Source: Thermodesulfobacteriota bacterium
GTDB taxonomy: Bacteria > Desulfobacterota_D > UBA1144 > Nemesobacterales > JAJCZQ01
Assembly: GCA_965215275.1 (NCBI GenBank)
Contig: OZ244044.1
Location: forward strand, 560,855-624,854
DNA: 64,000 nt
Direction: 5' to 3'
Shown one piece after another: positions 1-35,316 of this stretch. The notes under the pieces are model-generated. The model saw nothing but the letters and a program-made list of their open reading frames with translations. It did no database searches and was not told where the DNA came from. The position numbers and the translations under genes were made by a program. The stretch's first letter is position 1. The number at the start of each line of letters is the position of its first letter.

Positions 1-2680
1 CCAGAACGGATAATCCGGCTTCTCCGGGGTGCGTGCCCTGAATGGGTTGCCCCAGCTGCATCTGATCCCCCACCAGAATGACGTTCTTGGTAGCACTGGA
101 CATGGCTACGACGTTGGCAGTGGAGACTTGCCCGGCTTCATCAATGAACAGGTAATCCAGCTTCCCATCGAAATGCAGTTTAGCAAATGTCCAGGCCGTT
201 CCGGCAAACAGGTCTGCGTTAAGGTCCATATCCCCGGTACTGGTCTCTGAGCAGATGAACTTCCCTTCAAAGACCGTCTCGTTATTGTTGATGGTGGCTT
301 TTTTGATACCACGGAAGCGTACGCTTTTTTCTGTAGCGACATCTTCGACTTTCCTCAGAATATTATGAATGGCCTTATGCGAGTTGGAGGCAATACCGAT
401 CTTTTTGCCGCGCTTTATCAAGTCCACGATAATGTGGCTGCTGGTATAGGTCTTACCTGCACCCGGAGGACCTTGTATAAAAATATAGCTGTTCTCCAGT
501 GCAGCAATGGCTTTCAGTGCATCACCCTGCAGATCATTTGAGGTAATAATGGCCTTGTCCGACTGTTTACCTTTAATACGTGGAACTTCGCGGTTCAGCA
601 GTTCCGTAGCGAGGTGAACCTTGCCAGGTGATTTCAACACATGATCCGCGTAGCGGTAAATGGCTGATCGGAGGTCATTAGCGTCGATAGGAGCATGTGG
701 ACCGATGGACAGGCTTTCCGGCAGCGGATCTCGACCGTTTCCGCGCTTGATCTTGACGATACAGTCAGAATCATCGATCTCGACGATGACGCCAGCTGGG
801 GCCATAACTGCGACATTATCTACATTCGAGTTGACCTTCAGCTTGTATTCCTGTGGCGGAAAGCTGTAGGTGTAGACCAGTGAGCGTTTTTCATGCTCGG
901 GACCACCAACTTGCTTCAGGCCGGCAAGGCATTCGATGTCATCGATCAACTCATCTTCAGGCTTGTTCTGCCGATCAAATCTACTCCACCATTGCGGCTT
1001 GGCTTCCCGTCTGTGAAACTCCAGCAAATGGGCCAGTTTCTCATTGATGGGTGGCGGGTTTTCTCCGGTCATGCCCAAATGGTTCTGGTAATCCTCATAT
1101 TGTATTTCCCAAGGCTTGCGCTCCACCGGTTTTTCTTCCCCGGCATCCTCCGTCAAGTCTTTTTTGGACCGCTGCGTACCCACGGTTTTGAGAGTTAAAA
1201 GCCAGTTTCGCAGTAAATGCGTGGAAACACAGTCCTTCTCGTTATACTCAACAATCTCCTGCAGTAACTCATCGTTACCAGTTTCACGCCATTTATTATA
1301 AACGACTATACTTTCTGCAGCCGTCTTCACCGCGTCGTCCCGCTCGTTCATGTAAAAGGTCTCAAGGTTCTTAAGGGAATAGCCCGGCTCTGAGGTGCGA
1401 ATGCTCTCGCGCACGACCGCATACAGATCGATGAACTTATGATAGCGCAGCAGATTGTCCATCTGCTCTTCACGCACTGCATAACGACAGGCCAGACGTT
1501 TAAGTGCCGTTGTTTCATAATGGTTGTAGTGATAGATATGAGCATTGGGATGTTTGGTCAGATGATTTTCCAGAAAGGCCATAAAGCGTTCAAAGGTCTT
1601 TTTCTCTTCCTTGTGATCATGTGCCCAGAACGGCTTGAATACCCCTGTACCGTTCTTTAAATAGTAAACCCCGAACAGGTATTCCAGGCCATTTGGATAA
1701 AGCGGGTCTCCCTCCATATCGAAGAACAGGTCTCCATTGTCCTGCACGGGTATGCGGTCAAAACCTTTTCCCGGCAGAACGACCTTAATAACCTCGTACT
1801 TATTTTCGCCCGTGGTCTTCTTGTGATGCTGCAAGACGGCTTGAGAGCGCAGGCGCGAGAACCCGTCACGGTTCAGGTCAGGGATCTTTGTATCCTCTGC
1901 CGTGGAAGCCAGATCAGCGACCGTCCGAACATCTGCCTTTCGTAGTTTGTCCATCTGCGACCGCCGAATATTGGCCACAAGGCTGAGATGATCGTCTTCC
2001 TCCCACTGTGCTTTACAGCGGTCCTGCCACTGGCAGAATTTACAGTGGCTGCAGGGCTCAGGATAGGAATCTGCAGGCAAGTTCTTTATGTAGTTCTCAA
2101 AGCGGTCCTTGGCACGGGCGTAATAGTAGCGGAAGTCATCCACCCGGAAACTGTGCTTCTCATTATTCCCCAGAAACAGGTGCATGTTCACCGGATGAAG
2201 CTCCTGCAAGGTGGTCAGCAGTTCGGAATAGACGCACAGTTGCATTATGTGCTTAGGTTCGGCATTCCGCTTCAGTTTAGTGTCCAGGACCTCATAGCTG
2301 AAATTACCCAAGCCGGACGGCGTATCGCACTTGATCAGAAAGTCTGCATCACCCCGCCACGGTGCAGCAAATAACACGGCCTGATATATCACGTCCGTGC
2401 CGGATTTCATGGCATTAAGCGTCAGTTCTGCCCGGTCCTTCAGTTCCCCGTCTTTGGGAATTTCAGCAACGGTCTTGCCTTCATCCTTCAGGAGCTGGAG
2501 GTAGGAATCCTCATGCTCCAAGCCTTTCTTCTGTATCAACTGGTTCGTTGGACTGTCCTCGGTGGTTGCTATATCCTCGTTCAGTGCCTTCACATGAAGA
2601 AAACTCGCATGGTGGCACCCTAAAAAGGTGACCAAGTCCGAAGGTGAATAGAGTATCTGTCCGTTACTGTCTTGCCGCAT
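1..2680 (-). CDS. Partial (5' part in window, continues past position 1) RecB/Cas4-like (TM0106-family) nuclease + RNase H-like exonuclease + SF1 DNA2/Upf1-like helicase fusion protein
   Basis: Not in the ORF track because the stop lies outside the window. Reverse-strand translation from ATG at 2680 is open to position 1 (>890 aa). It begins MRQDSNGQILYSPSDLVTFLGCHH. It has a Cas4/AddB-like Cys cluster CSHCKFCQWQDRC, a DEDD-like motif DLFFDMEGDP, Walker A IFIQGPPGAGKTYTSSHII, a DExx box YLFIDEAGQ and motif III VILVGDQMQLGQP. Confidence 0.75.
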   Translation of the reverse strand, partial: MRQDSNGQILYSPSDLVTFLGCHHASFLHVKALNEDIATTEDSPTNQLIQKKGLEHEDSYLQLLKDEGKTVAEIPKDGELKDRAELTLNAMKSGTDVIYQAVLFAAPWRGDADFLIKCDTPSGLGNFSYEVLDTKLKRNAEPKHIMQLCVYSELLTTLQELHPVNMHLFLGNNEKHSFRVDDFRYYYARAKDRFENYIKNLPADSYPEPCSHCKFCQWQDRCKAQWEEDDHLSLVANIRRSQMDKLRKADVRTVADLASTAEDTKIPDLNRDGFSRLRSQAVLQHHKKTTGENKYEVIKVVLPGKGFDRIPVQDNGDLFFDMEGDPLYPNGLEYLFGVYYLKNGTGVFKPFWAHDHKEEKKTFERFMAFLENHLTKHPNAHIYHYNHYETTALKRLACRYAVREEQMDNLLRYHKFIDLYAVVRESIRTSEPGYSLKNLETFYMNERDDAVKTAAESIVVYNKWRETGNDELLQEIVEYNEKDCVSTHLLRNWLLTLKTVGTQRSKKDLTEDAGEEKPVERKPWEIQYEDYQNHLGMTGENPPPINEKLAHLLEFHRREAKPQWWSRFDRQNKPEDELIDDIECLAGLKQVGGPEHEKRSLVYTYSFPPQEYKLKVNSNVDNVAVMAPAGVIVEIDDSDCIVKIKRGNGRDPLPESLSIGPHAPIDANDLRSAIYRYADHVLKSPGKVHLATELLNREVPRIKGKQSDKAIITSNDLQGDALKAIAALENSYIFIQGPPGAGKTYTSSHIIVDLIKRGKKIGIASNSHKAIHNILRKVEDVATEKSVRFRGIKKATINNNETVFEGKFICSETSTGDMDLNADLFAGTAWTFAKLHFDGKLDYLFIDEAGQVSTANVVAMSSATKNVILVGDQMQLGQPIQGTHPGEAGLSVL

Positions 2681-2814
2681 ATTTTTTTACAAAAACGCCA
2701 TTGCTGTATTTTTTATGGTTGAAGCACAAAGCATTCCATAATACTTTAATTTTAACAGCAATCAAATTACAGACGTTTTGTCAAGATGGCTAATATTCTG
2801 AAAAAGATGGCGGC

Positions 2815-3142
2815 ATGAGCAAAAAAATCGCAAAGCCTGACTATACAAGACGAAACCACCGAATTTCTTCTCTACACGGCTCCGGAGGGAGGAATAAAAG
2901 TTGAGGTTATTCTGAACAGCGAGACTATCTGGTTAACCCAGCAGCGTATGTCCGATTTGTTTGGAGTAAGTCGCACAAGTATTGGAAGGCATCTAAAAAA
3001 TATCTTTGCAGCAGGAAAATTAGACGAAGACGTGGTATGTGCAGAAATTGCACATACCACTAAGCACGGTGCAATTCCGGGCAAAACTCAAAAAAGATTG
3101 GGTGCGATTTATACCTTGCAATTTGCTCTGACTTGGTGCAAA
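2815..3142 (+). pseudogene. RhuM-family (virulence protein RhuM-like) N-terminal remnant, frameshifted near its start and truncated after ~100 residues
   Basis: An in-frame open stretch 2819..3142 reads DETTEFLLYTAPEGGIKVEVILNSETIWLTQQRMSDLFGVSRTSIGRHLKNIFAAGKLDEDVVCAEIAHTTKHGAIPGKTQ. This matches the conserved RhuM N-terminus (TxDG..K.EV..EnETvWLtQ.QmaELF......I.eHlKNIF.eGEL...s.C.eF..t...G...GKTQ). An ATG at 2815 (MSKKIAKPDY...) is in another frame, suggesting a frameshift. The homology ends where the ATPase begins. Confidence 0.45.
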
Positions 3143-4327
3143 ATGCAAGGTATGTTAAAAAGATGGATTACAAACAGGCTTCAGAGAAATATCGCACGGA
3201 ATCCGGCCGTGGTACTTCTTGGTGCACGTCAAGTAGGTAAAACGACGCTTGCTCAACATATATCTGAAAGCATGAACTCAATATACCTCGATCTGGAAGC
3301 TCAGGAAGATCTATTAAAGCTCAGTGACCCCACCAGTTTTTTAAAAAGTCATAGTGACAAACTTATAATACTTGACGAAATACAGCGTGCACCTGATCTG
3401 TTCATGGTTCTACGCGGACTGATCGATAAGAACCGTCAGCAGGGCCGCAATGCTGCACAGTTTCTTCTGCTAGGTTCAGCATCAATGGATTTGCTACGGC
3501 AATCCTCGGAAAGCCTTGCAGGTCGAATCAGTTACATCGAAATGACCGGTCTTAATGTACTTGAGATTGGTAAGGAAAAACAAAACATCCAGAGCGTATG
3601 GCTGCGCGGAGGATTTCCTATAAGCTATCTCGCACAAGACGATGATATGGCCATGGAATGGCTCGAAAACCTTATACGAACTTATCTGGAACGGGATGTT
3701 CCACAAATGGGTTTTAACGTCTCAGCCAGCAAGTTACGTCGTCTCTGGACAATGCTAGCGCACCTGCAAGGTGAAACGGTTAATGTGAGTAAGCTGGCTG
3801 CAAACCTTGAAGTGGGACGTTCAGCCATAAACCATTACATAGATATCCTTACCAACCTGTTACTGGTCCGGCGCATTGAACCGTGGCACGCCAACATCAA
3901 AAAGAGACTGGTGAGATCACCGCGATATTATGTACGTGATAGCGGCATCCTGCACCGCTTGCTGGGTATTGGAAATTACGATGCGTTGCTGTCCAATCCC
4001 ATACTTGGCAAAAGCTGGGAAGGGTTTGTCGTCGAGAACATCCATTCTGTACTGCCACCACTTGCCGAAACATATTTCTACCGTACATCAGCTGGAGCAG
4101 AAATCGATCTGGTCATCAAAATGCCAAATGCGGAAGTATGGGCTGTGGAAATTAAGCACGGCGTTGCTCCCAAGCTAGGCAAACATTACAGCCAGACGTG
4201 CAACGACGTCGGTGCCACGCATAAATACATCGTCTATGGTGGTGATGATGTATTTACTGTCGGAGATAGCATTACAGTTATTTCCCTGCCAAAGATCATG
4301 GAAAAGCTTATTTTCTGCCAGTCATGA
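3143..4327 (+). CDS. AAA+ ATPase of the COG1373 family (AAA_14 + DUF4143). The ORF is open in frame from 2948 (or 2819) through the RhuM remnant, so it may be a chimeric fusion
   Basis: Walker A AVVLLGARQVGKTTLAQ and Walker B KLIILDEIQRAPDLF are present. The C-terminal half (WHANIKKRLVRSPRYYVRDSGILHRLLGI...EGFVVENI) is typical of DUF4143 and carries a PD-(D/E)xK-like D...EIK core (EIDLV...AVEIKHG). Start ATG at 3143 (MQGMLKRW) was chosen by homology onset. The ORF track gives 2948..4327. Confidence 0.7.
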   Translation: MQGMLKRWITNRLQRNIARNPAVVLLGARQVGKTTLAQHISESMNSIYLDLEAQEDLLKLSDPTSFLKSHSDKLIILDEIQRAPDLFMVLRGLIDKNRQQGRNAAQFLLLGSASMDLLRQSSESLAGRISYIEMTGLNVLEIGKEKQNIQSVWLRGGFPISYLAQDDDMAMEWLENLIRTYLERDVPQMGFNVSASKLRRLWTMLAHLQGETVNVSKLAANLEVGRSAINHYIDILTNLLLVRRIEPWHANIKKRLVRSPRYYVRDSGILHRLLGIGNYDALLSNPILGKSWEGFVVENIHSVLPPLAETYFYRTSAGAEIDLVIKMPNAEVWAVEIKHGVAPKLGKHYSQTCNDVGATHKYIVYGGDDVFTVGDSITVISLPKIMEKLIFCQS

Positions 4328-25684: not shown

Positions 25685-26620
25685 ATGAGCAAGATCGAAT
25701 TCGGAGTTATGCTGCGGCAGCAAAAGATAGACTTCTCGGATATACGCGAGGCGGCGCAGCTTTGCGATAAACTGGGATATGATTCCATATGGTTTTACGA
25801 CCACGTTCTCGGGCAAGGCATTATCGGCATTGACATTTTGGAACCCTGGACACTTATGTCGGCACTTGCACCTGTAACCGAACGGATTAGGATCGGGACC
25901 ATGGTGCTGTGCAACGGGTTCAGACATCCTCCGCTGCTGGCAAAAATGGCCTCAACCCTTGATCATATATCCACAGGCAGACTTGAACTTGCCATCGGCG
26001 CAGGCTGGTTCGAAGAAGAGTTCAAAGCGTATGGGTACGACTTCCCGGATGCAAAGACCAGAATAGAGATGCTCAGGGAATCAGTTGAGATATTAAAACT
26101 TTTATGGATAGAGGAAAAAGCAAATTACAACGGAAAATACTATAAAGTAGAAGAGGCCTTATGTAATCCCAAACCCGTTCAGAAACCTCACATTCCCGTT
26201 ATAATCGGAGGAGCCGGGGAAAATCATCTGTTAAAAGTCGTTGCTGCGGTGGCCGATGAATGGAACTGTCCCGCAACCCACTCGGTTGAATTCGACAGGA
26301 AATACCTGGCACTGAAACGGCACTGTAATGACCTGCAAAGAGATATTGAGACAATACGCATATCCGAGCAAACCGTGTGCGTGCTGGTCGGCAGGGAAAA
26401 CGAACTTGCGGAAAAGCTCGAGAAAGCTCAACGCAGATACTCGTTCTTTGGAGACGTGGAAAAGCTGGGAATAGTTGGAACGCCGGATCAATGTATCAAA
26501 AAAATAAACGCCAATAAGGAAAAAGGCATAACAAAATACACGATCTTTTTTTCAGACGTAATGAATAAAGAAACCCTTGAACTGTTTGCAAAAGAAGTTA
26601 TACCGGAGTTTGATCGTTAG
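25685..26620 (+). CDS. LLM-class (luciferase-like) flavin-dependent oxidoreductase
   Basis: GYDSIWFYDHV...RIRIGTMVLCNGFRHPPLLAKMASTLDHISTGRLELAIGAGW is a typical LLM TIM-barrel signature. Confidence 0.7.
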   Translation: MSKIEFGVMLRQQKIDFSDIREAAQLCDKLGYDSIWFYDHVLGQGIIGIDILEPWTLMSALAPVTERIRIGTMVLCNGFRHPPLLAKMASTLDHISTGRLELAIGAGWFEEEFKAYGYDFPDAKTRIEMLRESVEILKLLWIEEKANYNGKYYKVEEALCNPKPVQKPHIPVIIGGAGENHLLKVVAAVADEWNCPATHSVEFDRKYLALKRHCNDLQRDIETIRISEQTVCVLVGRENELAEKLEKAQRRYSFFGDVEKLGIVGTPDQCIKKINANKEKGITKYTIFFSDVMNKETLELFAKEVIPEFDR

Positions 26621-26668
26621 CAGGATCATGCTGATGTTATATGGAACTCTCAAAATGATCTTGAAAAT

Positions 26669-27298
26669 ATGACCGATAAAAGACCTTATACTCGCGAGAA
26701 ACTTATTTATAAAAGATTTGTCTCACGTTTTAGTCCTACTAGTGTAGAGAGATATGTCCCTAACAGGCGAGGTTTAGAAGGTTTATTTGTAATCAGAGAG
26801 GTCGACCTGTGGAACAAGGGTATTGAAGAAATATATATAGTCGTTGATGCTTCTTCATCGTTTGATGAAAAGAAATTATCATCTGTTATTCACCACATTT
26901 ACAAACTTTTAGTCAGAGACAGAGTTGACGTTAAATGGAATATACTGATCTTTGCCACCAAGGCTGAACTGATCAAAAAAGTTAAAATAAAAAACGCTGA
27001 TACCGTCTGTGAGATCATTAATGAAAACCGGGATAAAGTTGGCAGTACTGCTGAATTTGCACCAGTCGAAAGCATTTTAAGGAAGAATTTTGGAAATATA
27101 ACAGGGATAATTTTTGTTAGTGACTACGATTTTACAGAAGAGGACAGAAAGAATTTTTATCAGTTCGTTATTAAAAAATCACTTGCTGGATTTAAAGTTC
27201 CAATGCTGGTAATTGAGGTCGGTGGTGCCGTTCAGGAAGAAGTTATACAGACTTTCAGTAAAAAATCACACATAGACCTTTGCATTTTTAACTATTGA
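26669..27298 (+). CDS. Hypothetical protein, low GC; weak vWA-like MIDAS motif
   Basis: IYIVVDASSSF fits DxSxS. No other recognisable motif. AT-rich codon usage differs from its neighbours. Confidence 0.3.
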   Translation: MTDKRPYTREKLIYKRFVSRFSPTSVERYVPNRRGLEGLFVIREVDLWNKGIEEIYIVVDASSSFDEKKLSSVIHHIYKLLVRDRVDVKWNILIFATKAELIKKVKIKNADTVCEIINENRDKVGSTAEFAPVESILRKNFGNITGIIFVSDYDFTEEDRKNFYQFVIKKSLAGFKVPMLVIEVGGAVQEEVIQTFSKKSHIDLCIFNY

Positions 27299-27311
27299 TC
27301 AACGGTCCTGC

Positions 27312-28097
27312 TTACTTGATCTCTATTTCCCGCTCGGTAGCGTTCCAGTCCGCCTGAATTAACTTACCGTCCTTGTCCAGCACCTCTAACCTGATATGGT
27401 AGGTGCCAGTACTGAGACCAGATACAAAAGCTGGTGTCCATTCGTCAGTTTCAAAAATATATTCACGGGTGTCACCTTTTTTACGGACCCTGTACCTTGC
27501 CGTATTCCCGTCGGCACTCAGTTCCACGTTGTTTAAATAAAAATCCAGCATGATCTTTTTTGCAGCATCACCAGCATAAACCCCTTTAGGACGGCTATAA
27601 ACAACAAAAGGACTTCCTGTTCTTACAGGCTGAAATTCCAATCTGTTACCAGTCAGCTTAAAACTGACCACGCTGCCTGCACCCGGCGTCTTGACGCTTT
27701 CATGATAGGAACGGCCTGGAAATGCAAACAGCGTGTGCTGTCCTTCCGTTACTTCCTTTATATGTACCAGGTTATCCTTACCGTGCCTGTAAATCGCCAG
27801 ATATGGCTTATTATCTATGATCAGATGAACGTGCTGCCCTCTTGGGGAATTTGCTATCTCCGCCGCTCTCGGCGTCTTTGTCTGAATACCTAACACAAAA
27901 TCATCCACGTCCAGTTCCACGTCAATCCCGTTACCCTTCCTGGTGATATTTACGATCCTTACATTAGGTTTTCCCGAAACTGCAGGTGACCTTTCTGCCT
28001 TGCTGATAACCACACCCGTTTTATTCCAGCAACCGGCCGCAAACGTTAATGCAGTTATAACAGAAATAAAAAGAACTTTAACTCGTTTAATCTTCAT
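27312..28097 (-). CDS. Hypothetical lipoprotein
   Basis: Signal plus lipobox LTFAAGC. 261 aa, beta-rich. No family recognised. Confidence 0.4.
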   Translation of the reverse strand: MKIKRVKVLFISVITALTFAAGCWNKTGVVISKAERSPAVSGKPNVRIVNITRKGNGIDVELDVDDFVLGIQTKTPRAAEIANSPRGQHVHLIIDNKPYLAIYRHGKDNLVHIKEVTEGQHTLFAFPGRSYHESVKTPGAGSVVSFKLTGNRLEFQPVRTGSPFVVYSRPKGVYAGDAAKKIMLDFYLNNVELSADGNTARYRVRKKGDTREYIFETDEWTPAFVSGLSTGTYHIRLEVLDKDGKLIQADWNATEREIEIK

Positions 28098-28163
28098 TTT
28101 TTCAACCCGCTTAAAAATTTCAGTTATGATTTATATCAAGTAGTATTATAACACCAGAGAAAA

Positions 28164-29192
28164 ATGAAAAGAAGACCGTCTCAAACCGTTCCCCATGAGG
28201 ACATAGCAGGTCTGGACGTTCCCAGCAGACCAAGAAGGAACAGAAAGTCCGAGAGTATCAGAAAGCTGATACGAGAATCCCATCTTACACCGGGTGACCT
28301 CATTTATCCCCTGTTTATACACGATAAGGATACCGATGAAGATATAAGTTCAATGCCCGGATGTAAAAGGTTTGGCATAAAAGGACTGCTGAACGAAGTA
28401 AGAACGTCCCTTAAGCTCGGAATTTCGGCATTCGTGCTGTTCCCTGCAATCAAGGAAGATCTGAAGTCCTCTTTATGCGAGGAGTCGTATAACAAGGATG
28501 GACTGGTTCAAAGGGCCGTCAGATCGATCAAGGAAAATATCCCCGAGGCCACGGTCATAACCGACGTCGCCCTTGATCCCTATAACAGCGATGGACACGA
28601 CGGAGTTGTATCTCCCAAGGGTGAAATACTGAACGACTACACGGTTGAGGTGCTGTGCAAGCAGGCACTCTCACACGCACGGTCCGGGGCAGACGTCGTT
28701 TCACCAAGCGATATGATGGACGGAAGGATAGGTGCTATCAGAGAGACGCTTGACGAAGAGGAGTTTACAGGCGTTTCAATTATGTCCTACACGGCAAAAT
28801 ACGCATCGTCGTTTTACGGGCCATTTCGTGGTGCACTGGATTCCGCTCCCAAATCAGGTGATAAGAAAACCTATCAGATGGACCCTGCCAATTCCCGTGA
28901 GGCGTTAAGGGAACTTATGCTCGATGAAGAGGAAGGTGCCGATATAGTGATGGTCAAGCCCGCCGGATACTATCTTGACCTTGTACATCTCTTTAAAGAA
29001 AACACGGAACTCCCGGTTGCCTCATATCAGGTAAGTGGTGAGTATCTGATGATCAAGGCAGCTTCGGCTTCAGGATGGTTAGATGAAGATAAGGCCGTTT
29101 TAGAAAGCCTGATGAGCATAAAACGAGCAGGTGCTGATATGATACTGACGTATTTTGCACCAAAAGCGGCTTTACTTCTGAGAGATACTTAA
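28164..29192 (+). CDS. hemB: Porphobilinogen synthase (delta-aminolevulinic acid dehydratase)
   Basis: PRRNR...IYPLF...GADIVMVKPAGYYLDLV...MILTYFA are conserved HemB blocks. Confidence 0.9.
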   Translation: MKRRPSQTVPHEDIAGLDVPSRPRRNRKSESIRKLIRESHLTPGDLIYPLFIHDKDTDEDISSMPGCKRFGIKGLLNEVRTSLKLGISAFVLFPAIKEDLKSSLCEESYNKDGLVQRAVRSIKENIPEATVITDVALDPYNSDGHDGVVSPKGEILNDYTVEVLCKQALSHARSGADVVSPSDMMDGRIGAIRETLDEEEFTGVSIMSYTAKYASSFYGPFRGALDSAPKSGDKKTYQMDPANSREALRELMLDEEEGADIVMVKPAGYYLDLVHLFKENTELPVASYQVSGEYLMIKAASASGWLDEDKAVLESLMSIKRAGADMILTYFAPKAALLLRDT

Positions 29193-29360
29193 CGATCAGA
29201 GGTATATTTAACAGAACTGCAGAGCGTTAAGGTCCGTATGCTCAGATCCGACAGGAAAGAACACGGACAAAGATATCAGCTAAATGTATTATCGTTCTCT
29301 TTACAATTCCACAGACTTTTGATACAATGTTTTGTTTACGATTTATGAGGTGAAAAAAGT

Positions 29361-29639
29361 ATGAAAAAAGGCATACACCCTGAATACAATTACGTGGTCT
29401 TTAAAGACGCCTCCTCTGATTTTGCAGTGCTGACAAGATCGACCAGGACCTCCGAAGAGAAGATCAAATGGACAGATGGTAATGAATATCCGCTCATTAC
29501 GGTCGAGATATCAAGTGGTTCCCATCCCTTTTACACCGGAAAGGAAAAGTCCTACGAGAAAGAAGGCCGCGTGGAACGATTCATGAAGAAATACGGCAAA
29601 GCGACTAAAAAATCAGAAACGCAGGAAAAAAACACCTGA
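29361..29639 (+). CDS. rpmE: 50S ribosomal protein L31 (type B, no Zn-ribbon)
   Basis: MKKGIHPEY...HPFYTGK. Confidence 0.85.
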
Positions 29640-30389
29640 TCAGAATACCATTTCCTCACCGTCCCGGGGAATTAACAGTCTGTCGGGGCTGATATTTTCC
29701 CTGTCGGCAAGTTTTCTCAGATCCGCTCTTGTTATCTTGTAGTGATCAAGGCTTTCCATGTGGACCGCCACGACCTTTGCCTCAGGTGCGAACTTACACG
29801 TGCTCACGGTCTGAAAACCGTCCATGACTATCGGTTCGGAATTACCCAGCCTTGCACCACTTGAATGAGTAATGATAACGTCGGGCTTATGCTCAAGAAT
29901 TACGCTTTCTACCCCGTCGTACCATATAGTATCACCAGCCCAGTAAACCGTTGGCTCATTTTCAGCTTTAAAGACAAAGCCCGATACCTTTCCCATTGAC
30001 TGTGCCCATACCCCTACCCCGTGCTGACCTGCGACCCTGGTTATTTCGATACCTTCCCATACGGATGAGCTCTCGACCGGACGCACGTTCGTAAAACCGG
30101 TGCTCCCGATCATCGGTTCATCGCCCGGCTGACAGAATATGGTCAGGTCCCTGGGCATGACCTCCTGGGCTTTTGGATCAAAATGATCTATATGAAGATG
30201 TGAAACGATGCAGAGTTCAACACCTGACAGTACCTCTTCGATCGGTACCGGCATATCCTCGAGTGGATTAGGGGACCGGCCGATAAAAGTTTCGTAAGCA
30301 TACTTTCCTGCAAGCATAGGGTCCGTTAAAACCGTCCTTCCAGCATACTCAATCTTCATCGTGGCATTTCTTATAAGTCGTAATTTCAT
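29640..30389 (-). CDS. MBL-fold metallo-hydrolase
   Basis: HLHIDHFD is the HxHxDH motif. The N-terminus MKLRLIRNATMKIEYAGRTVLTDP resembles the MBL start. The track ORF extends to 30425 (MQGPETEPGATE...) and would overlap the Fic gene. Confidence 0.7.
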   Translation of the reverse strand: MKLRLIRNATMKIEYAGRTVLTDPMLAGKYAYETFIGRSPNPLEDMPVPIEEVLSGVELCIVSHLHIDHFDPKAQEVMPRDLTIFCQPGDEPMIGSTGFTNVRPVESSSVWEGIEITRVAGQHGVGVWAQSMGKVSGFVFKAENEPTVYWAGDTIWYDGVESVILEHKPDVIITHSSGARLGNSEPIVMDGFQTVSTCKFAPEAKVVAVHMESLDHYKITRADLRKLADRENISPDRLLIPRDGEEMVF

Positions 30390-30411
30390 TTCGGTCGCTC
30401 CCGGTTCAGTT

Positions 30412-31002
30412 TCAGGACCTTGCAAATTTTATAAGCGGTTCAAAGTTAAATTTATCAGCTTCCTTCAATGCCTTGATATATACTTTCCTTATCTTGCCTT
30501 TCTGGATCAAACTGACTCCCCCACCCCAGGTGAACCTTTTCCGCTTAAGTACGTTCTCAAGAAGAATATCCGCCATCAGCCTTGAAGTCCTGCCGTTACC
30601 ATTACTGAAAGGATGGATAAAGACCAGGCGATGATGAAGTCTCGCGGCTATTTCATCCGGGGGATAGGTGTTACTTTCTATCCATATCTCCACGTCTCTG
30701 CACATATTCCTTACGGAAGAAGATATCTCCCACCATGATACCCCGATGTTCGTATCCTGTTTTCTGAAATAACCGGCGTTTTTCCATACCTGACCGAACA
30801 TCCTGCGATGCAGGTCCCTTATAAACTTTCCGCTCAGGATATTATCAGGTTTTACCTTTTTCAGCCAGATCAATGCCTCTTTAATGTTCTGATATTCCCA
30901 TCTGTTCAAATCTTCACGGTTAGTAACATGGATCAATAAAAGCTCTCTTGCCTCGTCCGGGTCGATCGGGGTTGATCCCATTGGGGCTTTATTTTTGCTC
31001 AT
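30412..31002 (-). CDS. Fic-family protein ('mobile mystery protein B')
   Basis: Fic motif HPFSNGNGRTSRL (HPFx[DE]GNGR). ~196 aa. Paired with the upstream HTH gene. Confidence 0.8.
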   Translation of the reverse strand: MSKNKAPMGSTPIDPDEARELLLIHVTNREDLNRWEYQNIKEALIWLKKVKPDNILSGKFIRDLHRRMFGQVWKNAGYFRKQDTNIGVSWWEISSSVRNMCRDVEIWIESNTYPPDEIAARLHHRLVFIHPFSNGNGRTSRLMADILLENVLKRKRFTWGGGVSLIQKGKIRKVYIKALKEADKFNFEPLIKFARS

Positions 31003-31005
31003 TGA

Positions 31006-31464
31006 CTAATCCCACAGGTCTCTGGGCATATCGTTCATTATGCCTTCCACGTCTTCTGAAAATAAATTTTTCAAATTCTTATCCTTTATTTTCTGCTTTT
31101 CAAGGACCATTGTCTGATCAACTATTTTCAGTCTTTCTCTTGCGACCTCTTCAGCTCTCTTTCTTACGGTGTCCTCCAGACTGGTCCGAGGAATAAGGCT
31201 ATAGACAAGAACACAGTCCAGACTTTCAGCAACCTTTCTGAGGGTTTTTATCGTTATGGAACCCACGACCTCATCCTGCTCAAGCCTGGCAACGCTCTGC
31301 TTGGACGTATTCAGCCTCCTGGCAAGCTGCCTTCCGCTCATTCCCAGCCCTTCCCTTATTGAACGTATCCAGCCAAGTGGAGGAGTTCTGAGCTTTTTCA
31401 GCAAAGCGAACCCGGACAAAGCCCCGTCTATCTGTTCTCTTACGATCTTTTTTTTCGTCTTCAT
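31006..31464 (-). CDS. XRE-type HTH regulator ('mobile mystery protein A'), probable antitoxin/regulator of the Fic protein
   Basis: HTH LGMSGRQLARRLNTSKQSVARLE. It sits 4 nt upstream of Fic in the same orientation. The ATG at 31464 is preferred; the track starts at TTG 31473. Confidence 0.65.
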   Translation of the reverse strand: MKTKKKIVREQIDGALSGFALLKKLRTPPLGWIRSIREGLGMSGRQLARRLNTSKQSVARLEQDEVVGSITIKTLRKVAESLDCVLVYSLIPRTSLEDTVRKRAEEVARERLKIVDQTMVLEKQKIKDKNLKNLFSEDVEGIMNDMPRDLWD

Positions 31465-31466
31465 AA

Positions 31467-31522
31467 TTGACAATATATATTATGACTTTTATTTTTATAT
31501 GACAATATATATATTGTCATAT
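31467..31522. promoter_or_regulatory. Operator/promoter with a perfect 20-bp palindrome TGACAATATATATATTGTCA (31500..31519) and a second TGACAATATATAT half-site overlapping the start codon
   Basis: Read directly. On the minus strand, TTGTCA then 17 nt then TAATAT gives a sigma70-like promoter embedded in the palindrome. Confidence 0.5.
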
Positions 31523-31692
31523 CTCCACGACCCTGTCAAGTTCCAATGTAAGTTATTTTACTACTTCTGGATCGTTAAAGTCAATTATCAGGAGTTCACA
31601 GGTGTTTCGAACGAACGTGGACGACCGAGCAGCAGCTCAGGCAAAACGGACCGAGAACTTCCAGGGTTACAGTATTTACGGACCTGTAGGGT

Positions 31693-32595
31693 TCAATCAG
31701 CTGCCTTTGACAGCAGGGATTCTGCCAGACGCTTACCCATATCTTCGGCTTCCTGCCTGCTGCCATCTGACCTTTCAGTTACAAGATCCCTGCCAAGTTC
31801 ATCAGATACAAACCCTACTGCGCTCATGCCTTCCCCTGACGCTCTGGCATAGCAACCGGCGGGAACGTTGCAGTCACCTTCCAGGTGCTTCAGGAAAGAC
31901 CTTTCAAGTAAGGTCTCGTACAGCGTCTCCGGATGGTTTATATCATCCAGTATATCGCTGATATACTTATCGTCTTCTCTGGATTCCATGGCGATAGTTC
32001 CCTGACCCGGTGCAGGGATGAAAACGTTTGGGTCCAGGACCTGAGAGATCTTATGCTGAAGGTCCATCCTGTTCAGTCCGGCTCTGGCAAGGATCACGGC
32101 GTCAAGGTCCTCAAGGTACAGCTTTTTAACCCTTGTATCCACGTTCCCTCTGATAGGAACGACTTCAAGGTGTGGATAATAGTGCAGTATTTGTGCCTTT
32201 CTTCTAACGCTTCCGGTCCCGACCCTGGAACCGGGGATCAGATCATCAAGGTGACGGTTTTTTTTTGAAACGACCGCGTCCTCGGGATGATCCCTTTCAG
32301 AGACCGCTCCGATCTTAAGCCCGTCAGGAAGTTCCGATGGAAGGTCCTTTAAACTGTGCACGGCAACATCGACCTCTTCGTTCAGGAGCGATACTTCGAT
32401 CTCCCTGACAAAAGCACCCTTACCTCCTATATCAGAAAGAGAAGACGCGGACATCCTGTCTCCGCGGGTTTTTATAATGGATATCTGAACATCGGTATCA
32501 GGGAGACGCTCCAGCAGTGCGGACCTTACAGAACCGGCCTGCCAAAGTGCCAGTTTACTTCCCCTGGTTCCAACTATTAACGTTCTCCTCGTCAC
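31693..32595 (-). CDS. hemC: Hydroxymethylbilane synthase (porphobilinogen deaminase)
   Basis: LIVGTRGSKLALWQA... conserved HemC blocks. The N-terminal 58 aa of the track ORF (start 32769) lie inside hemA and are not HemC-like. GTG at 32595 (VTRRTLIVGTRGS) with GGAG 10 nt upstream gives a 300-aa product and a 41-nt overlap with the hemA 3' end. Confidence 0.8.
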   Translation of the reverse strand: MTRRTLIVGTRGSKLALWQAGSVRSALLERLPDTDVQISIIKTRGDRMSASSLSDIGGKGAFVREIEVSLLNEEVDVAVHSLKDLPSELPDGLKIGAVSERDHPEDAVVSKKNRHLDDLIPGSRVGTGSVRRKAQILHYYPHLEVVPIRGNVDTRVKKLYLEDLDAVILARAGLNRMDLQHKISQVLDPNVFIPAPGQGTIAMESREDDKYISDILDDINHPETLYETLLERSFLKHLEGDCNVPAGCYARASGEGMSAVGFVSDELGRDLVTERSDGSRQEAEDMGKRLAESLLSKAAD

Positions 32596-33886
32596 TTTGC
32601 GGGATCTCCAGCTTTTCACCCAGACCGTAAAGCCTCTGGATAGTTTCAGAATAAAGCATTCCGACCGAGGTCGAGGATTCTCTTTTAAGTCCTGAAATCG
32701 GTCCGTGAAGCACCTTGGCAATGATCCTGTCAGCCAAATTATCAATAACCTTCTTCTGTTCCTGCTCAAGATGACCGAGCTTGCCGTACGCCCGTTCGAG
32801 TTCCCCGGTCTTTATATCTTCCATCTTGTCCTTCAGTTTTATTATCGTTGGAACTCCCTTTAAACCGTTGATCCAGTTTATAAACCTTGAAGTGTGTTCC
32901 TCCACGATCCTCTCGGCCTCTGCCGCACTTTCTTCTCTCTTGTTGATATTCTGGTCCAGTACGCTCTGAAGGTCGTCAATATCATAGAGATATACACCTG
33001 AAATATCGTTCACCCTTGGGTCAATGTTCCTCGGTACCGCAAGGTCAACAAAGAACATCAGTTCGTTCCTTCTGAGCCTGAGCGCCTGCAGGACGTGCTC
33101 GGACTTAAAGATAAAATCACTGGAACCGGTCGCGGTAACCACTATATCGACGTCAGTGAGCTTATAATATATATCTTCAAATCTGACCGGCGTGCCGTGA
33201 AGCCGGCGTGCGAGAATTTCCGCGTTCTCATGGTTCCTGCTGGCTATGTACAGGTCCTTTATTCCAGATCTTATCAGATTTCTTGCAGTCAGTTCAGCTA
33301 TCTCTCCGGTACCTATGAGCAGCACGCTCCTGTTGTCAAGGTCGTCAAATATCCTCTTTGACAGCTTAACCGCAAGATAACCAACTGATACCGACAGGGA
33401 ACCTATGTTCGTGTCGGAACGAACTCGCTTGGCCACGGAAAAGGCGTATTGAAAAAGTCTGTGAAGTATTATCCCCGCTGCTCCGCTCTGAAGGGAACCG
33501 TTGTACGATTCTTTGACCTGACCGAGTATCTGTGGCTCACCTATCAGCATGGAATCAAGGCTGCAGGATACTCTGAGCAGATGCCTTACGGCCTGAGCGT
33601 TGGAGTAGCTGTAAAAATTATCGTCTATGATCTTTCTGTTCAGGCCATTTTCAGAAATAAAATATTCCTGTACGTCGTCTATAAACGAGTCGTGATCATC
33701 AGTAACGGCGTATATCTCAGTACGGTTGCACGTCGATATTATGACACACTCGTTTATGCTTTTCCTTTCCCTGAACTTTGTAACGGGATCAGCCGAACTG
33801 ACGCCCAGTGCGATCTGTTCCCTTATGTGCACCGGAGCGGTTTTGTGGCTAATTCCATATACTATTAATTGATACATAGCTGTCAA
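32555..33886 (-). CDS. hemA: Glutamyl-tRNA reductase
   Basis: GISHKTAPV..REQ..., Cys active-site region IISTCNRTEIY and NADPH motif LLIGTGEIAELTARNL. Confidence 0.9.
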   Translation of the reverse strand: MTAMYQLIVYGISHKTAPVHIREQIALGVSSADPVTKFRERKSINECVIISTCNRTEIYAVTDDHDSFIDDVQEYFISENGLNRKIIDDNFYSYSNAQAVRHLLRVSCSLDSMLIGEPQILGQVKESYNGSLQSGAAGIILHRLFQYAFSVAKRVRSDTNIGSLSVSVGYLAVKLSKRIFDDLDNRSVLLIGTGEIAELTARNLIRSGIKDLYIASRNHENAEILARRLHGTPVRFEDIYYKLTDVDIVVTATGSSDFIFKSEHVLQALRLRRNELMFFVDLAVPRNIDPRVNDISGVYLYDIDDLQSVLDQNINKREESAAEAERIVEEHTSRFINWINGLKGVPTIIKLKDKMEDIKTGELERAYGKLGHLEQEQKKVIDNLADRIIAKVLHGPISGLKRESSTSVGMLYSETIQRLYGLGEKLEIPQSDEENVNSWNQGK

Positions 33887-33905
33887 ACCTGCATAAGAAC
33901 GGTCA

Positions 33906-34475
33906 TTACTTGAACCTGTGTTCGCTCTTGTGACTGATCAGGCTCAGAAGTTCCATCCTTGTTCTCTCGTCCTTTCTGAACGAACCGAGCATGGAGCTTG
34001 TGAGCATGTTGGCATCTGATTTCATTATTCCTCTCATCGCCATACACAGATGAAAACCGTTAACAACTACAGCAACGCCCTTTGGATCTAACGCATCGTT
34101 CAGAAAATTCGCTATCTGCACCGTCATGTTCTCCTGCACCTGAAGCCTTTTGGCGTAAATATCCACAATTCTTGGTATTTTGCTGAGCCCTATTACCTTT
34201 CCATTCGGAACATACGCAACGTGACACTTGCCGAAAAAAGGAAGTATATGATGCTCGCAAAGACTGTAAAACTCAATATCCTTTACAATGATCATCTCGT
34301 CATAATCAATATCATATATAGCTTCGTTTATGGTATCTTTCGGACATTCCTTATAGCCACGGGTAAGTTCTCCGTACAGTCTTGCAACCCTTTCAGGAGT
34401 GCCTTTCAGTCCTTCCCTGTCAGGATCTTCCCCTATTGATCCCAGGATCTCCCTAACGGCATTTTCCACGCTCAT
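33906..34475 (-). CDS. folE: GTP cyclohydrolase I
   Basis: [13 protein letters not shown]...[20 protein letters not shown]... Confidence 0.9.
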
Positions 34476-34891
34476 CTGATCTCCTCCTTGTAATACTCAA
34501 AACAGCTTCTGTCATTTTCCCATACTTTCACGTACTTAAGTGCACCATTGAACCTGCCGGACAGACAATTCCAGATATAAACCGCGATATTCTCCACCGT
34601 GGACTGGTTCTTCCGAAAGTACTCGACCTCCTGGTCTATCCTTCTGTGATCAAGGCTGTTCTTTATCTCGTTAACGCCGTCCTCGATCGCCGGTCTTTCC
34701 ATTATCATACCCGTGCTTTCCGATATGTCCGATGAAACCCTGAACTCGACCTTATAATCATGTCCATGACCCTGCGGATTTGCACATTTATCAAAGATCT
34801 TAAGATTTTCCTCCTCGCCCATACCTTCCACAAAGAGCCTGTGTCCCGCGGAAAAATCAAAGACCCTGGTAAGAAAGACCTTTTCCATCAC
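34472..34891 (-). CDS. queD: 6-carboxytetrahydropterin synthase QueD / PTPS
   Basis: [15 protein letters not shown] (Cys + HGH). 139 aa. Confidence 0.7.
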
Positions 34892-35316
34892 TCCTTCCAG
34901 TAATCAACGTAGAGATCATCCGTCTCATAAAGTCTGACCTTAAAAAGCCTGCAGTCGGCACCCCTTTGGCTCAGCTCATCCTCAATATCGCTCCACAACG
35001 TCCTGGCAATGTTCTCAGGCGTTGGTATAAGGGTCCTGAACGCTTCAACGTCCTCGTTTAAAAATTTATGGTCGTACTTTTCCAGAACGGTATTCAATAT
35101 GGATTTCAGGTCAAAGATGTTTATAACCATTCCCGTCTGTTCATCGATCTCTCCGGTAACCGTTGCCTCGACCTTGAAATTATGACCATGTCCCAAGGGA
35201 AAGGTGCTCTTGCCAAATATCTTTTTATTGGTGTCCTCGTCCCAGCTGGTGTTCCAGTACCTGTGAGAAGCTGAGAACTCAGCTTTTTGCGTTATCAGAT
35301 TTTTATGCACCGTCAT
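34888..35316 (-). CDS. PTPS/QueD-family paralog lacking the catalytic Cys
   Basis: FGKSTFPLGHGHNFKVEATV (Ser in place of Cys). Its start overlaps the queD stop. Confidence 0.65.
   Translation of the reverse strand: MTVHKNLITQKAEFSASHRYWNTSWDEDTNKKIFGKSTFPLGHGHNFKVEATVTGEIDEQTGMVINIFDLKSILNTVLEKYDHKFLNEDVEAFRTLIPTPENIARTLWSDIEDELSQRGADCRLFKVRLYETDDLYVDYWKE

Follow-up and report, generated by a model that had tools for sequence, protein, structure and literature searches.

A vertically inherited mobile mystery protein A/B operon with phased palindromic boxes: a probable toxin–antitoxin-like module of the class I Fic kind

In the 64-kb stretch of contig OZ244044.1 from a Thermodesulfobacteriota bacterium analysed here (hereafter the window), two adjacent genes encode an XRE-type helix-turn-helix (HTH) protein, A, and a single-domain Fic protein, B, which belong to the family known as mobile mystery proteins A and B. 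Our reading, to which we assign a probability of roughly 0.65, is that the two genes form a chromosomal, vertically inherited operon and act as a module resembling type II toxin–antitoxin systems, of the class I Fic kind, with the antitoxin fused to a DNA-binding domain. The reading is built on palindromic boxes in front of gene A that recur with a fixed phase throughout the family, on a glutamate of A that disappears together with the Fic partner or its catalytic histidine, and on the divergence of the pair among relatives. In the following, L001–L006 denote the six relatives recovered and L007 onward other loci; coordinates in the window are collected in Table 1.

RESULTS

The pair belongs to the mobile mystery A/B family

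Protein A scored 172.3 bits against TIGR02612 (cut-off 122.6), with residues 5–152 placed on profile positions 2–149 of 150, and protein B scored 240.5 bits against TIGR02613 (cut-off 124.4) over profile positions 2–186 of 186. Both curated cut-offs are thus clearly exceeded over the full length of the proteins, and the name 'mobile mystery protein' pair, given in an initial annotation that a model had made from the sequence, is borne out. B also matched PF02661 (Fic, 56.6 bits) and A matched PF01381 (HTH), and the Fic motif that had been claimed, HPFSNGNGRTSR, was found at residues 130–141 of B. The pair is an ordinary new member of a family already named by annotation pipelines, and it shares with this family the order A then B, the common strand and the tight spacing as well as the full-length matches. 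Among 84 A loci, co-directional A-then-B order holds in most, and 11 have no B.

The distribution of the family is patchy across unrelated phyla. B homologues were found on 255 plasmids of PLSDB, including plasmids of Agrobacterium, Rhizobium, Coxiella, Vibrio and Rickettsia, and a search of phage genomes with B gave no match. The family has been named among the cargo of Tn7 elements (PMC8649781), and Xre–Fic pairs were already listed in 2009 among predicted toxin–antitoxin systems (PMC2701414). The family is named for its mobile elements, whereas the window copy is chromosomal, lies among core genes and appears to be vertically inherited in its clade; carriage on a mobile element, which is the source of the name and no part of the models, was not seen for this copy. 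We found no solved structure for either family. A paper on a Coxiella plasmid toxin–antitoxin system was considered as an account of the A–B pair and was rejected, as it deals with HigB2/HigA2. Two A–B copies were seen in one genome for L012 and L024 (contig JBDRQE010000023.1), for L020 and L021 (one metagenome-assembled genome, MAG) and for L061 and L074 (one MAG).

Two palindromic boxes cover the promoter region of gene A

The perfect 20-bp palindrome that had been reported upstream of gene A, TGACAATATATATATTGTCA, is present at 31500–31519, with its centre 46 nt upstream of the A ATG, and is in fact the core of a larger perfect palindrome of 26 bp, ATATGACAATATATATATTGTCATAT, denoted here as candidate operator box O1. 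In the 64-kb window this is the sole perfect palindrome without a spacer that has arms of at least 8 nt, and its 13-nt arms were reached in 0 of 200 dinucleotide-preserving shuffles, for which the maximum was 11. The exact 11-mer TGACAATATAT has three copies in the window, all at the promoter region of A, and no box with the exact core was found elsewhere in it. Degenerate matches over the whole window were not above chance (3 versus 4.2 expected); what makes the finding significant is the exact palindrome and where it lies.

A second half-site was said to overlap the start codon. A second copy of TGACAATATATAT indeed lies at 31468–31480, but it lies next to the start codon without reaching into it, and it is really part of a degenerate full box, O2, which reads AGTCATAATATATATTGTCA on the gene strand and ends 3 nt upstream of the A ATG. 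The centres of O1 and O2 are 32 bp apart. When the window was aligned with the six relatives, conservation was concentrated in the two boxes and the spacer around them varied; the left half of O1 was invariant in the seven clade sequences and O2 nearly invariant.

Embedded −35/−10-like hexamers had also been described, and in a consensus scan sigma-70-like pairs do overlap the boxes. The candidate promoter TTGTCA-17-TAATAT lies over both of them, and its −35-like hexamer TTGTCA is supplied by the promoter-proximal arm of O1, while O2 covers TAATAT/TATATT −10-like hexamers together with the usual position of a ribosome-binding site. A second sigma-70-like pair, ATGACA-18-AAAAAT, overlaps the boxes as well. 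An alternative candidate further upstream, TTGACT-18-TAAAAT, is kept in the window, L001, L002, L004 and L006 (5/7) and is absent from L003 and L005; if transcription began from it, the boxes would fall in the 5′ leader as a roadblock. The start predicted from TTGTCA-17-TAATAT is only ∼5 nt before the A ATG. Moreover, no Shine–Dalgarno sequence precedes this ATG in any of the seven clade sequences, its place is taken by box O2, and a −10-like TATATT lies 7 nt before the ATG, which together suggest that the mRNA of A is leaderless or nearly so. An HTH partner and candidate palindromic boxes over promoter hexamers are the features of an autoregulated type II toxin–antitoxin operon.

Box phasing is conserved and box sequence follows the recognition helix

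The upstream regions of the 84 A loci, 81 of them distinct, were then compared across the family. CAATAT-N2-ATATTG, with at most 2 mismatches, was present upstream of A in 33 of the 84 loci, from many phyla, at a density of 4.18 per kb compared with 0.049 per kb over the remaining sequence of these loci (∼85-fold), and the boxes were frequently arranged in arrays, e.g. at −99/−66/−33. An unbiased search for 14-nt direct repeats with a spacing of 20–46 bp and a threshold of 11/14 gave a repeat of 11/14 or better in 62 of 81 upstream regions. The spacing was 32–33 bp in 42 of these 62, exactly 33 bp in 34, and the same search in shuffled upstream sequences returned a flat spacing distribution, with 32–33 bp in 6 of 75.

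Box sequence and recognition helix of A vary together. The helix SKQS/TKQR pairs with the box (T/A)G(A/T)CAATAT, SQPR with AAATAAT, S(K/R)SQ..QMER with AGGCTATAT and S(A/P)PRIT with TTAAT-type boxes, so that sub-families differing in this helix have different boxes at the same spacing. The nearest folds to the HTH domain of the A model are HipB and HigA2, both of them antitoxins acting as repressors of the operons that encode them, and the likeness extends from the fold to palindromic, phased operators over the own promoter. The toxins of those systems are the HipA kinase and the HigB RNase, whereas the partner here is a Fic enzyme; the A family also differs in its box consensus, (T/A)G(A/T)CAATAT-N2-ATATTG(T/A)C(A/T), repeated at 32–33 bp. 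The pair had been called an autoregulated module, and for this the conservation in the clade, the ∼85-fold enrichment, the 32–33 bp phasing and the co-variation of box and helix provide support of a comparative kind. By the same good comparative evidence, A probably binds its boxes on one face of the DNA.

A glutamate of protein A is lost together with the Fic partner or its histidine

Protein A is composed of an N-terminal helix pair, a five-helix XRE-type HTH (about residues 32–81), an extended linker and a C-terminal two-helix module. In the AlphaFold model (predicted local distance difference test score, pLDDT, 84) the C-terminal helices span residues 96–121 and 128–145 and are joined by a loop, with T118-M-V-L-E122-K-Q124 closing the first of them C-terminally. 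The family alignment shows that this segment is a conserved motif, (S/T)118-M-x-L-E122-x-Q124, in an otherwise variable C-terminal half: M119, L121, E122 and Q124 are invariant, and position 118 is Ser or Thr in most members, not in all. The tail MPRDLWD is conserved as well (MPxxLW, with P147 and W151 invariant). In EcFicA the sequence SRRLEG closes the first of two helices, and its Glu makes a salt bridge to the Fic motif's second Arg (PMC5033356). In the model, the C-terminal topology of A matches that described for EcFicA.

Glu122 and the catalytic His of B occur together in 67 of 68 readable pairs. The remaining pair, L018 (Desulfobulbaceae MAG, 2600–3650), is the sole one without the Glu (Gly instead, TMLLGAQ) and also the sole one with the Fic motif YPFVNGNGRHAR, in which Tyr replaces His; both of its reading frames are intact, and the pair looks naturally disarmed. 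Four other A proteins without the Glu (L046, L049, L050 and L065) have no B at all (Fisher p = 0.003, motif versus presence of B). The odds are about even, in our estimate, that Glu122 serves as an inhibitory plug acting on B. A different stretch of A, SEDVEG (residues 136–141), fits the inhibitory motif (S/T)xxxE(G/N) exactly. It is kept only in relatives of at least 76% identity and reads LEDVER, EEDIKK or AAVEEL elsewhere, and was therefore rejected as a chance match.

Some A genes without a Fic partner stand beside other genes, which were identified by eye. In L040 a 208-aa P-loop protein resembling zeta-toxin kinases begins 8 nt on; in L032 the gene after A encodes a 924-aa helicase-like restriction subunit and in L053 it is type I methyltransferase-like. 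In L046, L049 and L065, the latter two labelled Krumholzibacteria, A lies beside a membrane-fused spermidine-synthase-like gene, M-x-L-E-x-Q is lost and the upstream TGACA..TGTCA boxes are kept.

Protein B has a Fic fold and a fixed Asn in its motif

Foldseek searches with the B model returned the Fic fold, with FICD, VbhT (FIC domain TM 0.61), CdFic and NmFic among the matches; the FIC domain of VbhT is the closest in size and fold. For the expected β-hairpin flap, residues 81–93, pLDDT is below 50 and no strands were assigned in this poorly modelled region. An internal (S/T)xxxE(G/N) motif is absent from B, as from 106 of 120 homologues. In the motif H130-P-F-S-N134-G-N-G-R138-T-S-R141, none of 46 homologues departs from the catalytic H130, from the anion nest G135-N-G-R138 or from R141, the second Arg. 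At motif position 5, the Mg2+-coordinating position, Asn replaces the canonical Asp/Glu in 117 of 118 homologues. The acidic residue at this position coordinates Mg2+ in AMP-transferases, and deviating motifs have been taken as a sign of other activities (PMC3667792). Because of Asn134, the group transferred by B may not be AMP. 'Fic toxin', as the gene had been called, is thus a reasonable name as far as the predicted fold goes, and one that assumes AMPylation.

One alternative is that B is a domesticated regulatory enzyme and not a toxin, a mild or reversible modifier of a host protein, or one that transfers a group other than AMP, with A as its dedicated regulator and the pair kept for host physiology. 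We regard this as possible, if doubtful. In its favour are the Asn seen in nearly all homologues and a conservation of B equal to or above that of hemA and hemC (in L002, L003 and L005, 94, 85 and 85% for B versus 86, 76 and 77% for hemA), with a ratio of nonsynonymous to synonymous substitution rates (dN/dS) of 0.05–0.15. There is also a precedent in enterobacteria: inheritance of their EcFicTA module is vertical, its motif is degenerate and no adenylylation is seen with it (PMC5033356). FICD, EfFic and Fic-1–AntF are reported to act as deAMPylases. Against it, a plasmid-rich, patchy family better fits a selfish or defensive element. Moreover, the retention of the catalytic His and the Glu plug together implies an activity that needs restraint.

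Defence is the second alternative. Here B would be held by A and freed on infection, leading to abortive infection by phage as proposed for SoFic-type proteins. B matched the PADLOC models PDC-S04, a candidate defence model (E 2.5e-20, nearly full length), and SoFic (E 7e-14), in a library without a curated cut-off. According to PMC12249575, SoFic-type proteins are toxic AMPylators that act in defence with a small antitoxin, and a C-terminal domain is reported there for SoFic. Elsewhere, A-family genes adjoin type I restriction-modification subunits or the zeta-toxin-like kinase. The SoFic model has 361 positions and represents class II, with its own N-terminal inhibitory helix (PMC3667792); B differs in having nothing beyond its 196-aa Fic domain, and its HTH partner is a separate protein. 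Against a defence role, PDC-S04 is only a candidate, the window locus lies outside any defence island, with haem, ribosomal and queuosine/folate genes as neighbours, and its stable inheritance under purifying selection is unlike the rapid turnover of defence genes. A defence role for B is possible, the housekeeping context gives it no support, and as an explanation of this locus we find abortive infection unlikely; such a role is compatible with a toxin–antitoxin mechanism and does not exclude it.

The pair has diverged with its neighbours

The pair had been taken for an inserted mobile cassette, to be checked by comparing the hemC-proximal region in relatives and to be given up if its presence was conserved. 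That comparison found the pair in every relative that could be recovered: six of six keep it beside the hydrolase gene or a remnant of it. The order hemA–hemC–A–B–hydrolase–rpmE–hemB is shared by L001, L002, L003 and L005, for which identities are given in Table 2. In L004 (A identity 69%), gidB lies upstream and hemC is 9 kb away, and A–B–hydrolase has been kept after this upstream rearrangement. L006 (A identity 57%, labelled Candidatus Dadabacteria) carries different genes upstream, with A–B beside a hydrolase remnant. In this last locus (L006:2965–3855) the hydrolase is cut to a 75-aa C-terminal remnant, and a gene on the opposite strand, β-carbonic-anhydrase-like by eye, lies between B and the remnant. 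Labels in the clade are inconsistent: L005, the closest relative in the genome collection, is named 'uncultured Spirochaetia bacterium', and other relatives Candidatus Dadabacteria or Thermodesulfobacteriota.

Table 2. Amino-acid identity (%) to the window proteins in the relatives that share the gene order
Protein	L001	L002	L003	L005
hemA	97	86	76	77
hemC	94	85	72	71
A	98	84	77	78
B	98	94	85	85
Hydrolase	98	91	85	86
hemB	99	92	88	88

The amino-acid divergence of A and B follows that of hemA, hemC and hemB. dN/dS was 0.10–0.22 for A and 0.06–0.24 for the neighbours, with the range for B as given above, and for L001 and L002 A and B have the same synonymous divergence (dS) as the flanks. In comparisons of L003 and L005 with the window, dS of A and B was 0.55–0.64, below that of the hydrolase, hemC and hemB (0.90–1.17); possible causes are constraint on codons, noise from saturation or exchange among clade members. 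The GC content of A and B and their GC at third codon positions (GC3) match the window mean and the GC3 of the neighbours. Direct repeats bracketing A–B were looked for and not found, and neither an integrase nor a tRNA gene stands beside the pair.

A recently landed selfish addiction cassette between the hydrolase gene and hemC is therefore very improbable, since the pair is conserved in all six relatives with housekeeping-like divergence, native composition and no flanking repeats, and without an integrase, tRNA or phage match. What speaks for it is the mobility of the family at large (the 255 plasmids and the Tn7 cargo), its scatter over phyla and the absence of A–B from L085, the next-nearest hydrolase orthologue (72–73% identity). 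From L085 onward, 80 metagenome loci with hydrolase orthologues of ∼73% identity or less had no A–B nearby. Given L085 and the plasmids, an old acquisition is plausible; probably an ancestor of the clade gained the pair a single time, with vertical descent under purifying selection since then. The 1.1-kb gap upstream of the L085 hydrolase was considered as an A–B remnant and was rejected, because it holds a frameshifted ATPase-like gene (L085:4180–4760). This gene is split over two frames, one starting MKKKAVFSWSTGKDSALAL, resembles by eye an ATP-binding N-type pyrophosphatase and is either a pseudogene or an assembly error.

Locus layout and the hydrolase neighbour

The setting is as the initial annotation had it, with a metallo-β-lactamase (MBL)-fold hydrolase gene downstream and hemC–hemA upstream (Table 1). 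The start of A is placed at the ATG at 31464, because the family alignment fixes Met1 there; the TTG at 31473, chosen by the open reading frame (ORF) tool, lies upstream of this Met1. The genes had been given as 4 nt apart, whereas 3 nt were measured between the A stop (TAG, 31008..31006) and the ATG of B. A and B share one frame and are parted by one stop and one sense codon in 7/7 clade sequences, TAG+NNN in the window, L001, L002, L003 and L005 and TAA+NNN in L004 and L006, and read-through of the stop would thus yield an A–B fusion. A scan of 27000–35000 with Rfam gave no match. Further away, GC falls to 0.34–0.39 at 26400–27400, compared with a window mean of 0.446, and a 209-aa ORF (26669..27298) lies there.

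Table 1. Genes and candidate regulatory elements around the A–B pair in the window
Feature	Position	Strand	Remarks and evidence
hemA	33886..32555	−	Upstream neighbour
hemC	Stop at 31693	−	Followed by 228-nt spacer before gene A
Alternative candidate promoter TTGACT-18-TAAAAT	31555..31584	−	10/12 matches, ∼90 nt upstream
Candidate operator box O1, perfect 26-bp palindrome	31497–31522	.	Sequence search, shuffles, clade alignment
Candidate promoter TTGTCA-17-TAATAT, over both boxes	31477..31505	−	Consensus scan 9/12; geometry kept in clade alignment
Candidate operator box O2, degenerate 20-bp copy	31468–31487	.	Repeat search, clade alignment
Gene A, mobile mystery protein A, XRE HTH, 152 aa	31464..31006	−	TIGR02612, PF01381, family alignment, AlphaFold
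Gene B, mobile mystery protein B, single-domain Fic, 196 aa	31002..30412	−	TIGR02613, PF02661
MBL-fold hydrolase gene	30389..29640 (ATG at 30389)	−	22 nt downstream of B; PF12706 and PF13483
rpmE, hemB	Beyond hydrolase	Opposite strand	

No terminator was predicted between B and the hydrolase gene, and the latter is probably co-transcribed with A–B. The linkage of hydrolase and A–B is confined to L001–L006, with 0 of 78 other A loci showing it, and in L006 the hydrolase is degraded while A–B is intact. A functional A–B–hydrolase trio was accordingly rejected, and the hydrolase is taken as a neighbour and not as a part of the module. It is also most improbable that A is mainly a transcription factor for the hydrolase or haem genes, with the palindrome as their operator and the Fic gene incidental: although A–B–hydrolase stay together in L004 despite rearrangement and only 22 nt without a predicted terminator separate B from the hydrolase, the same 0 of 78 count applies, L006 keeps A–B and both boxes next to its 75-aa hydrolase remnant, A genes carry this box type across phyla irrespective of the genes next to them, and the window holds no other box with the exact core.

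DISCUSSION

Taken as a toxin–antitoxin-like module of the class I Fic kind, the A–B operon could work as follows. An A dimer would bind the 20-bp boxes O1 and O2, whose centres are separated by about three helical turns (32 bp), so that both boxes face the same side of the DNA. As the boxes overlap promoter hexamers and abut the start codon, bound A would repress transcription of A and B, and probably also of the hydrolase gene. In the protein complex, the C-terminal two-helix module of A would embrace B and Glu122 would enter the active site and pair with R141, in this way blocking nucleotide binding in B as FicA and VbhA do in their partners. Upon depletion or displacement of A, B, which is presumed to be toxic, would be released to modify a cellular target, perhaps with a group other than AMP.

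The module resembles the class I Fic modules VbhT/VbhA, EcFicT/EcFicA and Fic-1/AntF in that the partner gene precedes the Fic gene, the Fic protein itself lacks an inhibitory helix and the second Arg of its motif is invariant. FicA-type antitoxins such as EcFicA and VbhA are small, ∼55–60 aa, whereas A has 152 aa and carries an XRE HTH domain. Further differences lie in the variable G/N position of the inhibitory motif in A, in the lack of detectable sequence homology to FicA and VbhA, and in the Asn that replaces Asp/Glu in the B motif.

Several observations weigh against this reading. The last position of (S/T)xxxE(G/N) is Lys in A of the window and A, N, G, D or E elsewhere, and a profile of the C-terminal part of A searched against PDB and Pfam found no FicA or VbhA and gave chance matches only (MO25 and assorted domains of unknown function, DUFs). 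The double change in L018 is a single case and comes from a metagenome-assembled genome. The motif of B deviates from the AMP-transferase consensus HxFx(D/E)GNGRxxR by its Asn. Three consensus promoters compete in front of A and the boxes themselves resemble promoter hexamers, which makes the promoter not assignable from sequence. Moreover, a selfish toxin–antitoxin module would not usually be passed on vertically for so long, with dN/dS values down at the level of housekeeping genes. Finally, our search found no experimental study of the TIGR02612/TIGR02613 family, whose name occurs in four genome papers only and whose TIGR numbers occur in three.

A bolder proposal, which we consider rather unlikely as a whole, is that the family constitutes a distinct Fic class. 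In such a class the repressor would itself carry a FicA-type Glu plug, two to three operators 33 bp apart would couple promoter occupancy to the toxin:antitoxin ratio, and the fixed-Asn enzyme would not perform standard Mg2+-dependent AMPylation; in the present lineage, the pair would have become a domesticated host regulator with stable inheritance.

For the family, the toxin–antitoxin-like reading supplies a mechanism that can be tested, with an operator consensus phased at 32–33 bp, a candidate inhibitory residue, E122, and a fixed Asn that calls AMPylation into question. Moreover, the locus indicates that members of a family regarded as 'mobile' can persist by vertical inheritance under strong purifying selection, which matters for deciding if modules of this type are selfish or of use to the host.

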